NCBI RefSeq assembly: GCF_057098645.1
Contig: NZ_JBXSPU010000007.1
Reading direction: 5' to 3' (one strand)
From: a plasmid
Length of the DNA stretch: 3,133 nucleotides
Each line of letters opens with the position of its first letter. Position 1 is the first letter of the stretch. The position numbers and the translations under genes were made by a program. Below, piece after piece: positions 1 through 3,133 of the stretch. The notes below the pieces were generated by a model, which saw only the letters and a list, made by a program, of their open reading frames with translations, was not told the origin of the DNA and searched no databases.

Positions 1-189
1 GATTGTATTGTTTATCGCATTACGCAGAGCAACCTCAATCATCTGGACAAGACAAAAAAAATCGCCAGACAGATCTTGGTAGGCAACGTATGCCCCAACC
101 TTTTCTTGATCAGTAGCGCACCCAAGAAATGTTTCATAGAAAGATAATCTTGGTACAGAAATTGAGCTAATTAAACTTGTTGTATCCAT
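1..189 (-). CDS. Abi_2 (AbiD/AbiF-type) HEPN abortive-infection protein, N-terminal 63 codons. The ORF leaves the window at position 1 and continues in frame at 3133.
   Basis: Minus-strand ATG at 189..187, with an in-frame TGA 9 nt upstream, so this is the first possible start. A weak GTGAG Shine-Dalgarno sits 5 nt upstream. My translation is MDTTSLISSISVPRLSFYETFLGCATDQEKVGAYVAYQDLSGDFFCLVQMIEVALRNAINNTI, with no stop before position 1. The pattern (S..RL..Y, then a hydrophobic stretch, then E-V-A-L-R-N-A-I) matches the N-terminal conserved block of Abi_2 family proteins as I recall it. The ORF track missed it because it has no stop inside the window. Confidence 0.8.
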   Translation of the reverse strand, partial: MDTTSLISSISVPRLSFYETFLGCATDQEKVGAYVAYQDLSGDFFCLVQMIEVALRNAINNTI

Positions 190-290
190 GAAAACTCACT
201 TATCTCTTTACTATGAATATTTTTCAGACTACCATTACAACATTCGAGGAGCAGGCGAACTACCGTTTTTCTGTGTACCTCTAGAGCGTA

Positions 291-338
291 AAATATAACA
301 AAAAAGCCCACTACAGAGTGGGCTTTTTTGTTATATTT
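291..338. terminator. Bidirectional intrinsic terminator-like hairpin with a 22-bp perfect stem
   Basis: aaatataacaaaaaagcccact (291..312) is the exact reverse complement of agtgggcttttttgttatattt (317..338), with loop acag. The GC core gcccact/agtgggc is flanked by A6 on one side and T6 on the other, so it looks like a terminator on both strands. It lies about 100 nt upstream of the abi start codon on the minus strand. Confidence 0.7.
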
Positions 339-343
339 ATCTA

Positions 344-376
344 TATGAAACAACCAGTTATAGTTATTGTTTCATA
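344..376. repeat. Second hairpin next to the terminator (10-bp perfect stem, 13-nt loop)
   Basis: tatgaaacaa (344..353) is the exact reverse complement of ttgtttcata (367..376). The loop is ccagttatagtta. The function is unknown. Confidence 0.5.
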
Positions 377-430
377 ATAAGAATTGAATACTCTTCACAA
401 TCCACAACATCAGAAAATACTTTGCTGCCA

Positions 431-458
431 ATTTACCATAACTCCCCTTACGCGCACC
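431..458 (-). other. XerC/XerD core recombination site (11-6-11 layout)
   Basis: The reverse complement of 431..458 is GGTGCGCGTAA GGGGAG TTATGGTAAAT. That gives a XerC arm, a 6-bp central region and a XerD arm identical to the ColE1 cer XerD arm. Confidence 0.85.
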
Positions 459-558
459 GCTAAAACGCGCTGAACGCGATTCTGCCGCAAACACCGCAAA
501 AAGAGATGTTTTACCCAGTGAAAACCGGAAAAATGCGTCAGGACCGTTTTCAGCTCAC

Positions 559-647: not shown

Positions 648-971
648 CTAATCTGCCATAAGCCTGGATAACAGGGCCCGGTGATACTCCGTAATAGCGA
701 TCAGCACCTCCGCATACTCTCTGTCCCCGACACGCTTGCCGTCGATAAAGAGTTTTTTCTGTAACGCCCCCAGTCTCATAACTTCTTTCAGTACCCGATC
801 ATCAGTCAGTGAGTTAACTTTCTTACCGAGAGCTGCCGCCCGTAAAAAACCGGAAACGGTCTTGCCGCATTCAGCAGCCCTTTTTCTGATTTCCTGGTCT
901 TCTTCTGCCGTCAGACGAACAGGGCGACTGATAGCCCGCCTGCGCGTATTACTTCCACTTCGTTTTGTCAT
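648..971 (-). CDS. mobC: MobC-family ribbon-helix-helix relaxosome accessory (mobilisation) protein, 107 aa
   Basis: This lies inside the tracked ORF 648..1061. I place the start at the ATG 971..969 (MTKRSGSNTRRRAISRPVRLTAEEDQEIRKRAAECGKTVSGFLRAAALGKKV...), which has a GGAG 9 nt upstream. The longer start would run through the oriT inverted repeat. R.V.LT.EE......A...G.S.S.FLR.AALG is the classic MobC/RHH N-terminal pattern. Confidence 0.8.
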   Translation of the reverse strand: MTKRSGSNTRRRAISRPVRLTAEEDQEIRKRAAECGKTVSGFLRAAALGKKVNSLTDDRVLKEVMRLGALQKKLFIDGKRVGDREYAEVLIAITEYHRALLSRLMAD

Positions 972-1255: not shown

Positions 1256-1450
1256 ATGAACAAGCAGCAGCAAACCGCACTTAACATGGCAAAATTCATA
1301 AAAAGCCAGAGCCTGACGCTGCTCGAAAAACTGGACTCACTCGATGCTGATGCACAGGCCGCCATGTGTGAGAAACTGCACGAACTCGCAGAAGAACTCC
1401 AGAACAGCATACAGACACGCTTTGAATCGGAAAGTGGCACCGGGGAATAA
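1256..1450 (+). CDS. rom: Rom/Rop, RNA I-RNA II interaction modulator (copy-number control), 64 aa
   Basis: MNKQQQTALNMAKFIKSQSLTLLEKLDSLDADAQAAMCEKLHELAEELQNSIQTRF... is clearly collinear with ColE1 Rom (MTKQEKTALNMARFIRSQTLTLLEKLNELDADEQADICESLHDHADELYRSCLARF...). The size is right and the gene sits next to the ColE1-type origin. Confidence 0.95.
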   Translation: MNKQQQTALNMAKFIKSQSLTLLEKLDSLDADAQAAMCEKLHELAEELQNSIQTRFESESGTGE

Positions 1451-1691: not shown

Positions 1692-2193
1692 TTTCCATAG
1701 GCTCCGCCCCCCTGACGAGCATCACAAAAATCGACGCTCAAGTCAGAGGTGGCGAAACCCGACAGGACTATAAAGATACCAGGCGTTTCCCCCTGATGGC
1801 TCCCTCGTGCGCTCTCCTGTTCCTGCCTTTCGGTTTACCGGTGTCATTCCGCTGTTATGGCCGCGTTATCTCATTCCACGCCTGACACTCAGTTCCGGGT
1901 AGGCAGTTCGCTCCAAGCTGGACTGTATGCACGAACCCCCCGTTCAGTCCGACTACTGCGCCTTATCCGGTAACTATCGTCTTGAGTCCAACCCGGAAAG
2001 GCACGACTTATCGCCATTGGCAGCAGCCACTGGTAACTGATTTAGAGGAGTTAGTCTTGAAGTTACGTGCCAGTTAAGGCTAAACTGGAAGAACAAGTTT
2101 TGGTGACTGCGCTCCTCTTAAGCCAGTTACCGAGGTTCAGAAACTTGCCGGTTGCTGAACCTTCGAAAAACCACCTTGCCGGGTGGTTTTTTC
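1692..2193 (-). ncRNA. RNAII: RNAII replication primer precursor
   Basis: The 5' end is inferred 7-8 nt downstream of the TAATCT -10, by analogy with pMB1 (gcaaacaaaaaaaccacc versus gaaaaaaccacc here). The 3' end is the RNA-DNA switch in the ggaaaaacgcc block, which is ggcgtttttcc on the plus strand around 1687..1696. Both ends are approximate to a few nt. Confidence 0.8.
2057..2086 (+). promoter_or_regulatory. RNAI promoter
   Basis: TTGAAG (2057..2062), an 18-nt spacer, then TAAACT (2081..2086). This is positionally equivalent to the pMB1 RNAI promoter TTGAAG...TACACT. Confidence 0.75.
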
Positions 2194-2195
2194 GT
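2093..2195 (+). ncRNA. RNAI: RNAI antisense copy-number/incompatibility RNA
   Basis: It starts at ACAAGTTTTGG (compare ACAGTATTTGG in pMB1 and ACAAGTTTTGG in p15A). Three stem-loops can be drawn: ggtgactg...cagttacc, aggttcag...ctgaacct, and the terminator ccacct-tgcc-gggtgg followed by T6. The 3' end is approximate. Confidence 0.85.
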
Positions 2196-2299: not shown

Positions 2300-2328
2300 T
2301 TAAGATTTGATGTCAGATATGGTATAAT
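2300..2328 (+). promoter_or_regulatory. Candidate sigma70 promoter with an extended -10, driving the small transcript convergent with abi
   Basis: TTAAGA (2300..2305), a 17-nt spacer, then TGgTATAAT with a perfect TATAAT at 2323..2328. It lies in AT-rich intergenic DNA between the RNAII promoter and the abi 3' end. Confidence 0.5.
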
Positions 2329-2569: not shown

Positions 2570-3133
2570 TCAACCGGCTACCTTAAGCTCCCTGCACTTA
2601 ATCCTCCCTATAATCCCCATAACATACTCTATCGTGCAGCGTTCATAAAAGCGCCTATCGTGCCCAATAAACTCAATAAGTTCCTTTTTCTCGTTAGAGA
2701 CGATACTCAAGGCATTCATTAAAAAATTGAACTCTTTCAACATATTATTTATGGCTTGACTATGCGACTTGCAGTGGTGTTTTTTCCAAATAGGCTCATG
2801 GTGAAAAAGTCGATTCCTAAACAAAAGAACTTTATGAAACTCGTCAAACAACGCTTTAACCTTCATATCCCCCCCACCCAAAGGATTCTTCGCATGAGGA
2901 AATGTTTTTGCCTTGTTCTCTGGAGTCCAGATGTAGCACGGCCTTTGCGTATCCCTATATGGGGCATCTAACATATAAACCCAAAAGCCAAAGGTTAGAC
3001 GGCAAATAACATCATCATCCGTATACCTTACGCCACACTCATCTAGCGCTTTTTGTTTCGCATTTAAAACAAGATCCTGAGATTTCTTTGTTTGAGGTAT
3101 AGAGTCGTACCAAGCAGGCCCATGATTAGCTTT
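2570..3133 (-). CDS. Abi_2 (AbiD/AbiF-type) HEPN abortive-infection protein, C-terminal 187 codons plus stop. This is the continuation of 189..1 across the circular junction.
   Basis: The tracked ORF 2570..2974 stays open upstream to the window edge: 53 further stop-free codons starting exactly at 3133 (KANHGPAWYDSIPQTKKSQDLVLNAKQKALDECGVRYTDDDVICRLTFGFWVY, then MLDAPYRD...). It contains LTFGFW and FRNRLFHHEPIW (RNRLFH encoded at 2818..2801). That is the Rx4H HEPN-type motif and the RN..aHHe.iW signature typical of Abi_2. The stop codon TGA is at 2572..2570. Confidence 0.85.
   Translation of the reverse strand, partial: KANHGPAWYDSIPQTKKSQDLVLNAKQKALDECGVRYTDDDVICRLTFGFWVYMLDAPYRDTQRPCYIWTPENKAKTFPHAKNPLGGGDMKVKALFDEFHKVLLFRNRLFHHEPIWKKHHCKSHSQAINNMLKEFNFLMNALSIVSNEKKELIEFIGHDRRFYERCTIEYVMGIIGRIKCRELKVAG

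Follow-up and report, generated by a model that had tools for sequence, protein, structure and literature searches.

A conserved small RNA gene predicted opposite an AbiF-fold HEPN gene on a 3.1-kb ColE1-type plasmid

The 3,133-bp stretch of DNA analysed here (the window; contig NZ_JBXSPU010000007.1 of assembly GCF_057098645.1) is a whole circular ColE1-type plasmid that is found in identical form in about ten E. coli and Salmonella records, e.g., NZ_CP041117.1. As judged from profile and structure-model comparisons, its cargo is a HEPN protein with an AbiF fold, related to the abortive infection (Abi) protein PD-T4-5. Comparison with related loci indicates that positions 242-338 on the plus strand constitute a predicted small RNA (sRNA) gene of ~90-97 nt, which is divergent from the gene for this protein, abi. 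Both the reality of this sRNA gene and its linkage to abi are very likely. Specifically, the conserved structure, strand, boundaries and gene linkage of the predicted sRNA are established by comparison, and its fold and position suggest, with more reserve, that it could serve as an antitoxin of the Abi protein. The elements in question are the following:

1..189, minus strand: 5' part of abi, with the ATG at 189; the gene crosses the window ends
2570..3133, minus strand: 3' part of abi, reaching the circular junction; stop codon at 2570-2572
207-212 and 230-235, plus strand: predicted sigma-70 promoter of the sRNA, with -35 TTTACT, a 17-nt spacer and -10 TACCAT (position weight matrix (PWM) score 9.2)
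244..293, plus strand: structured unit of the sRNA, UCGAGGAGC-NNN-CGAAC-loop-GUUUU-NNN-GUGUACCUCUAGAGCGUAAA
246-249/278-281, 251-255/270-274 and 257-260/265-268, plus strand: helices P0, P1 and P2 of the unit in the window, with the loop at 261-264
291..338: predicted terminator of the sRNA, a 22-bp perfect hairpin with a bidirectional look in this plasmid

The cargo extends from ~2240 across the junction to ~424, and at the DNA level it occurs, within PLSDB and the complete E. coli genomes, in a near-clonal family of 3.1-kb plasmids only; the single other DNA match there (68%) lies within the gene, on an E. kobei plasmid. As there are so few relatives at this level, the comparison was made through homologs of the Abi protein (63 clusters), whose loci were retrieved and are designated here by L numbers. 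In homologs with 45-67% protein identity, the DNA from the A-tract of the hairpin to ~55 nt before the ATG is near-identical to that of the window, so that the non-coding block is conserved more strongly than the protein. Conservation spans UCGAGGAGC to the terminator; past it, the DNA of each locus is unrelated to that of the others. The unit was found in all abi lineages of at least 45% identity that have sufficient upstream sequence (13/13), in every case at a distance of 55-150 nt from the abi ATG and on the other strand. These lineages comprise the window plasmid, the AlpA-linked elements L082-87, L100, L090/91, the RepL plasmid L092, the Aeromonas contig L089, L094, the Pasteurella Rep3 plasmid L106, the Arsukibacterium chromosome L002, L105 and L109 (in both of which contig ends cut the unit) and the E. 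kobei plasmid. The last of these is the sole other annotated relative; its unit spans the record origin, where there is no annotation, and the records inspected likewise hold no annotation at the position of the sRNA. A search of viral contigs for the unit returned no copy. The host replicons thus range from ColE1, Rep3 and RepL plasmids through AlpA-linked elements to two contigs, one from Aeromonas that carries ParA and one of 389 kb from Arsukibacterium. Since the block is shared while the replicons differ and the DNA beyond is unrelated, block and abi appear to move as one module, of which the hairpin forms the outer edge.

This result changes the view of the ~100 nt between hairpin and gene (290..190), which the initial annotation had described as a leader of abi. 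The length of the segment stands, as the ATG at 189 is backed by N-terminal conservation in 41 homologs. The conserved part is the body of the predicted sRNA, so the supposed leader is itself the conserved element, and nothing upstream of the hairpin is. Among the neighbouring genes, a 95-96-aa AlpA/HTH_17-like gene in the orientation of abi lies directly upstream of the module in L082-L087, L094-L096 and L106-L107; in L105, HTH_17 and DUF927 primase-like genes are found on its other side.

The fold of the predicted sRNA was examined in an alignment of 13 distinct copies of the ~55-nt block, whose sequences are related to each other. The consensus consists of three helices: P0, in which GAGG pairs with CCUC or CCUU; P1, in which (G)C-NNN pairs with NNN-G(U); and P2, in which GAAC pairs with GUUU around a variable loop. 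On the plus strand, 98.1% of cells are standard pairs and four pairs show double-sided changes; the observed pairing and covariation scores were reached by 0/500 column shuffles, and sliding the partners by 1-3 columns brought pairing down to 42-64%. RNAalifold independently yields the same three-helix fold. Furthermore, the 95 nt from 242 to 336 fold at -40.4 kcal/mol on the plus strand (z = -7.7), and this single-sequence minimum free energy structure equals the consensus; the minus strand of the same segment reaches -34.9 kcal/mol with fewer pairs of the unit. A covariance model of the unit (R1), whose E-values are rough, matches the window at 238-295 on the plus strand with 72.9 bits. The Pasteurella plasmid contributes a new compensatory variant. 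The Arsukibacterium metagenome-assembled genome (MAG) carries two tandem units with a period of ~51 nt between promoter and terminator (L002, 2750-2860), whose P1 helices differ and are each internally compensated (CUGC/GCGG versus CCAU/AUGG).

The same alignment bears on the strand. In 25 cells (38 with the invariant G14-U46), a G.U pair on the plus strand becomes A.C on the abi strand, and the reverse pattern occurs in none. The terminator stem is kept through U.G wobbles on the sRNA strand only (L082, L089, L094, L100), and in L094, L106 and all 19 loci of a more distant clade (group B, described below) the U-tract, too, is confined to that strand. G.U pairs, terminator polarity and promoters hence agree that the predicted sRNA is encoded on the plus strand, opposite abi, and the 22-bp hairpin is therefore best read as the 3' terminator of a divergent sRNA, not as a leaky attenuator in front of the toxin gene. 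The search for compensatory mutations among homologous loci that had been proposed with the initial annotation was thus fruitful, with changes at four pairs, but they support a fold on the plus strand only. A stem at 215-245, which had been taken as a weak hint of RNA structure on the abi strand, is present in the window; it is not conserved in relatives and overlies the sRNA promoter.

The promoter at 207-235 is the top PWM site in the sRNA direction within the window and would place the transcription start site (TSS) near 242. Promoters for the sRNA were found in 9/9 loci, with the -10 element ending 9-15 nt before GAGGAGC and PWM scores of 9.2-12.0; L097 and L102 have a near-consensus version (TTGACT-18-TATAAT). 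On the abi strand, consensus and PWM scans bear out the earlier observation that the segment between hairpin and ATG holds no convincing sigma-70 promoter in the window, and none is positionally conserved in relatives. The best candidates, inferred from reading the sequence, sit back to back over the sRNA promoter and are not listed by the consensus scan:

240..235 and 215..210, minus strand: weak candidate abi promoter, TTGTAA and CATAGT with 19-nt spacing

In homologs of at most 39% identity, the covariance model finds no copy of the window-clade RNA; these carry conserved upstream non-coding blocks of their own, clade by clade. Group B (L034-L071; 19 loci, mostly from beta-proteobacteria, plus a Prosthecobacter bin and an Anaerolineales bin) has, on the strand opposite the gene, TTGAC, 17-18 nt, TA(C/G)AAT, ~7 nt and a conserved 55-nt RNA with nested helices, followed by CCCCGGC...GCCGGGG and a U-tract. 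RNAalifold assigns it 26 pairs, four of them with double changes, and many are G.U in the RNA orientation only; in the tail, 6-7 of 9 positions are T on the RNA strand versus 1-5 on the gene strand. In group A (L004-L013; 8 marine gamma-proteobacterial loci), the antisense strand folds at -44.4 kcal/mol with 38 pairs and the sense strand at -28.5 kcal/mol with 25. Both groups thus show the divergent layout of promoter, structure and terminator seen in the window clade, each with a different conserved RNA; this suggests that the protein family as a whole, and not just this plasmid, is characterised by divergent, clade-specific structured sRNAs.

Conserved upstream blocks were also seen in an alpha-proteobacterial group (L052-L081; 40-60 nt) and in the Legionella loci L019-L032. 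In a Burkholderiaceae MAG (L005, 2758-2777, minus strand), a lone hairpin, CCGG-CGAAC-UU-GUUUU-CCGG, precedes a homolog of 38% identity by ~225 nt. It matches the P1-P2 core of the unit only (E = 0.12) and could be a diverged relic or a chance match.

The protein opposite the sRNA offers a framework for thinking about function. Assembled over the circular junction, the abi open reading frame (ORF) encodes 250 aa and is labelled a hypothetical protein in RefSeq. It matches the PADLOC profile of PD-T4-5 (E = 6.6e-30, profile positions 8-255 of 309); the Pfam family Abi_2 (PF07751) scores 19.9 bits, under its gathering cut-off of 25.6, and is present in some more distant members of the protein family. 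E52, R56 and N57 as well as the HEPN motif R169-N-R-L-F-H174 (Rx4H) are invariant in the 41 homologs. The AlphaFold2 model is all-helical (pLDDT 94.7), and its top Foldseek match in the PDB is 8vz6_A, a structure of dimeric PbAbiF with its non-coding RNA bound (probability 1.00, TM 0.55), the remaining matches being noise. Identity to PbAbiF is 15%, and a search of the PDB with a sequence profile of Abi gave no match, so that AbiF was found by fold search only.

AbiF, AbiD/D1 and AbiV are HEPN toxins that are neutralised by small upstream RNAs (PMC13064643, PMC12373285, PMC12737573, bioRxiv 10.1101/2024.05.05.592566). PD-T4-5 has been described as a plasmid-borne, TA (toxin-antitoxin)-like single-gene Abi system, distantly related to AbiF/D, with no named antitoxin (Vassallo et al. 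2022, PMC9519451). The window protein resembles it in being plasmid-borne, single-gene and Abi-like; the original from ECOR34 has 314 aa, its clone included 184 nt of flank, and no RNA partner for it is described in the literature examined.

Against this background, the model best supported by the data is that the sRNA is a protein-binding antitoxin of an AbiF-fold HEPN RNase, in a type III-like arrangement with its own divergent transcription unit, a reading that we consider about evenly balanced between right and wrong. Specifically, the sRNA would be made in excess from its strong promoter, bind the Abi toxin dimer and hold it inactive, as AbiFr and RCd22 do for AbiF. Shut-off of host transcription or degradation of RNA by a phage would let the sRNA decay and release the toxin, resulting in abortive infection; in a plasmid setting, post-segregational killing could follow from the same mechanism. 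That the sRNA is expressed, binds Abi and neutralises it is inferred, on several grounds. The protein has the AbiF fold, and its solved relative PbAbiF holds its non-coding RNA antitoxin. AbiD/F loci show the same stronger conservation of upstream DNA over gene, their upstream regions being conserved beyond the genes and encoding RNA antitoxins (PMC13064643, PMC12373285). The sRNA fold, its invariant G.U pairs and its bulges are under selection, as protein recognition predicts, and each protein clade pairs with its own RNA. The duplicated unit of L002 is, furthermore, reminiscent of the C. difficile RNA RCd22, which holds two abiF motifs (PMC12373285). Finally, a strong sRNA promoter together with the lack of a recognisable abi promoter fits an antitoxin in excess.

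The comparison with known systems delineates what would be new. The window resembles AbiF/AbiFr (PbAbiF, PDB 8VZ6) and AbiF-RCd22 in having an AbiF-fold Rx4H HEPN protein, no protein antitoxin and a small structured RNA with a terminator. However, its RNA, which bears no relation to the abiF motif in sequence or fold, lies on the opposite strand under its own promoter, whereas AbiF RNAs are co-transcribed upstream of the toxin. With ToxIN, AbiQ, CptIN and TenpIN it shares occurrence on plasmids and, as proposed for the window, the combination of an RNase toxin with a cognate structured RNA and a role in abortive-infection defence. It differs from them in that the RNA has no tandem repeats (one unit) and does not lie upstream on the toxin strand, and that the toxin has the HEPN fold and not that of ToxN/AbiQ.

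Several points weigh against an antitoxin role. The sRNA and its TSS are predictions, and the window promoter is the weakest of the set, with 8/12 consensus matches, and is missed by a simple scan. The three RNA alignments comprise few sequences (13, 15 and 8), which are related to each other. No precedent for a divergent RNA antitoxin of HEPN or ToxN toxins was found in the literature examined, where all characterised ones are co-directional with the toxin. In addition, 4 of 8 unbiased metagenome pattern matches of the unit have no abi relative beside them (L097, L102, L098, L103), so that the RNA domain can exist independently or serve other contexts. In L097 (~2395-2650) and L102, a conserved ORF of 31 aa (MLNVYLVSPTTPTTTP...) has the unit as its 5' leader and is followed by a terminator, with HNH-like and CdiI_2-like genes near; in L103 (208-480), unit, hairpin and an 89-aa ORF follow each other on the same strand; and in L098 (5770-5844), the unit stands alone after grcA and before a convergent gene. 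All of these orphan units have good promoters. The idea that their neighbours are hidden Abi relatives was rejected, as hhalign gave a probability of 0.1% and neither PADLOC nor Pfam returned a HEPN match.

The main alternative is control of abi by the divergent sRNA gene in cis or through antisense pairing, with no protein binding, which we regard as unlikely although it deserves serious weight. The 17 nt between the -35 element of the sRNA (207-212) and the abi ATG (189) mean that any abi promoter has to overlap the sRNA promoter or gene, and no locus has a good abi-strand promoter between hairpin and ATG. As such, a strong sRNA promoter could occlude a weak, overlapping abi promoter (transcriptional interference). 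Alternatively, transcription of abi could begin further upstream and run across the sRNA gene, which would make the sRNA perfectly complementary to the 5' untranslated region of abi, as in type I systems; the abi-oriented AlpA/HTH_17 gene just upstream in L082-87, L094 and L106, and the missing abi-strand U-tract in L094, L106 and group B, make such read-through conceivable. There are precedents among type I systems, since IstR-1/TisB and OrzO/ZorO have a divergent sRNA gene with its own promoter near the 5' end of the toxin gene. Type I toxins such as TisB and ZorO, however, are small membrane peptides, and the sRNAs base-pair with the mRNA. The window toxin is a 250-aa soluble HEPN enzyme, and the complementarity of the sRNA to the translation-initiation region of abi does not exceed that of shuffled RNAs (z = -1.2 to +0.6, 8 loci). 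Moreover, the fold is under selection, with invariant G.U pairs and compensatory changes, although antisense action needs none of these, and the hairpin of the window should terminate well on the abi strand too, so that upstream transcripts should stop before they reach the sRNA region.

The orphan copies in L097/L102, L103 and L098 raise the question whether the sRNA is an independent RNA of mobile elements, such as a plasmid or island regulator or a cis-leader, with abi as a neighbour without functional link. This appears improbable in view of the 13/13 lineages of the protein clade that keep the unit in the same place and orientation on unrelated replicons, with unrelated DNA past the terminator. 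Chance neighbourhood would, furthermore, not predict that other clades have their own RNA in the same layout.

The initial annotation had proposed a structured RNA on the abi strand, with a leaky terminator as its end immediately ahead of the toxin gene, as in ToxIN-type loci or at the reported site of the abiF motif, with abi expressed by read-through. The two hairpins on which it built were recovered by a repeat finder at exactly the positions given, both perfect, as the only two inverted repeats in 150-480:

291-312/317-338: large hairpin, 22-nt arms, 100% complementary, 4-nt loop
344-353/367-376: second hairpin, 10-nt arms, 100% complementary, 13 nt between them; 11 pairs in the RNAfold structure

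The large hairpin has a GC core (GCCCACT/AGTGGGC) with A6 and T6 on either side and therefore resembles an intrinsic terminator on both strands. Its plus-strand U-tract lies at 324-329 and a consensus terminator scan lists 293-336 on this strand, while the minus-strand tail reads UUUUUUGUUAUAUUUU (U6GUUAUAUUUU). The minus strand of 170-440 folds with z = -3.97 versus shuffles. An abi-strand U-tract in this plasmid, a leader without a good abi promoter and exactly such a layout in the known AbiF systems spoke for the proposal. Comparison has nevertheless largely refuted it, and we now give it very little credence. On the abi strand, no conservation is seen upstream of the hairpin, and the conserved part follows it; the second hairpin is absent from homologous loci, where the DNA past the terminator is unrelated, so that of the two only the 22-bp terminator hairpin is conserved upstream of related abi genes. 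The 25-38 helix cells that turn A.C argue against an RNA on the abi strand, and with several relatives lacking a U-tract on that strand, read-through into abi is no feature of the family. Neither did the expected motifs appear. The repeat finder detected no direct or tandem repeats in 150-480, i.e. nothing like ToxI, and the Rfam abiF motif (RF03085), an RNA element tied to Abi_2/AbiF genes, gave no hit in the window at E <= 1, none in 190-345 even at E <= 10, and none at gathering score in 40 related loci; no other Rfam family reached threshold in 190-345 or in these loci either. Sub-threshold Rfam matches (Thr, Phe and Trp leaders, microRNAs) were driven by the terminator. What survives is the core of the idea, that a conserved structured RNA accompanies the toxin gene and may be its type III-like partner; strand, order, motif identity, the role of the second hairpin and that of the terminator, which looks as described on both strands and would serve the divergent sRNA, had to be revised.

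It is similarly remote that the conserved block acts at the DNA level, whether as an operator, as the promoter region for abi or as a recombination site: the block lies directly upstream of abi and contains the palindrome CTCTAGAG at 279-286 in the window, but this is lost in relatives (TTCTAAAG, TTCAAAAG), for which reason the operator reading was rejected, and compensatory changes, strand-specific G.U bias, a promoter at fixed distance and a terminator together define a transcription unit.

Some features of the surrounding DNA complete the picture. The backbone of the plasmid is marked by the following elements:

~430-460, minus strand: cer-type XerC/XerD core (GGTGCGCGTAAGGGGAGTTATGGTAAAT), read from the sequence; marks the end of the ColE1 backbone, outside the sRNA-abi module
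648-971, minus strand: NikA/MobC-like gene of the backbone
1256-1450, plus strand: Rop, backbone gene
2095-2195, plus strand: RNAI (Rfam, 95.9 bits)

The segment 430-460 is taken to be a cer-type Xer core like that of ColE1. Homology of the backbone to more than 700 ColE1-type plasmids ends at ~424-431, before either hairpin is reached, and the possibility that the hairpins belong to cer/Rcd was therefore rejected. The second hairpin, which has a U-tract on neither strand, is positioned between the sRNA module and this boundary. It forms part of ~85 bp (339-424) that are restricted to this plasmid family and otherwise matchless, and a minus-strand promoter-like sequence, TTGTGA (400..395), 15 nt, TATTAT (379..374), overlaps it. 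The loop of the large hairpin (313-316) is flipped on the same strand (ACAG versus CTGT) between otherwise identical copies, L099 and L101 versus the window and L104, and represents a flip polymorphism of a perfect palindrome.

At the other end of the cargo, near the abi stop codon at 2570, a strong promoter-like site with TG (TTAAGA-17-TATAAT; 2300-2328, plus strand) is followed by a 47-49-aa ORF at 2396/2402-2545 (plus strand; hypothetical in RefSeq), inside which an inverted repeat with a 28-bp stem (2462-2541) precedes TTTT. This unit (2300-2545) converges on the 3' end of abi and occurs at the DNA level in this plasmid family only; its hairpin may terminate both abi and the small ORF unit. 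The cargo also has a 100% match within the chromosome-labelled records NZ_CM132959.1 and NZ_CM132951.1 of E. coli strain 44 (~3.38 Mb), which reflects either plasmid integration or an assembly artefact.

The results raise appealing questions about a family whose PD-T4-5-type genes are catalogued as single-gene defence systems or hypothetical proteins. We tentatively propose, at a little short of even confidence, that the PD-T4-5-like AbiF-fold proteins of Proteobacteria are, family-wide, not single-gene systems but are paired with clade-specific, structured, divergent sRNAs that each have a promoter and terminator of their own, in an undescribed type III-like architecture with separate toxin and antitoxin units, whose RNA domain has been re-used as a stand-alone RNA or 5' leader. 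The three RNA motifs (window clade, group A and group B) are candidate new RNA families. If the sRNA is an antitoxin, it would explain why a high-copy plasmid of 3 kb can tolerate a toxic HEPN RNase, and the RNA-protein pair would be directly testable in E. coli. Defence-system finders and cloning strategies would, in that case, have to cover the opposite strand of ~150 bp of "upstream" DNA as well. Finally, RNA antitoxins in the AbiF/Cas13-ancestor lineage would then need no co-transcription with their toxins, which would bear on the origin of the association between guide-like RNAs and HEPN effectors.

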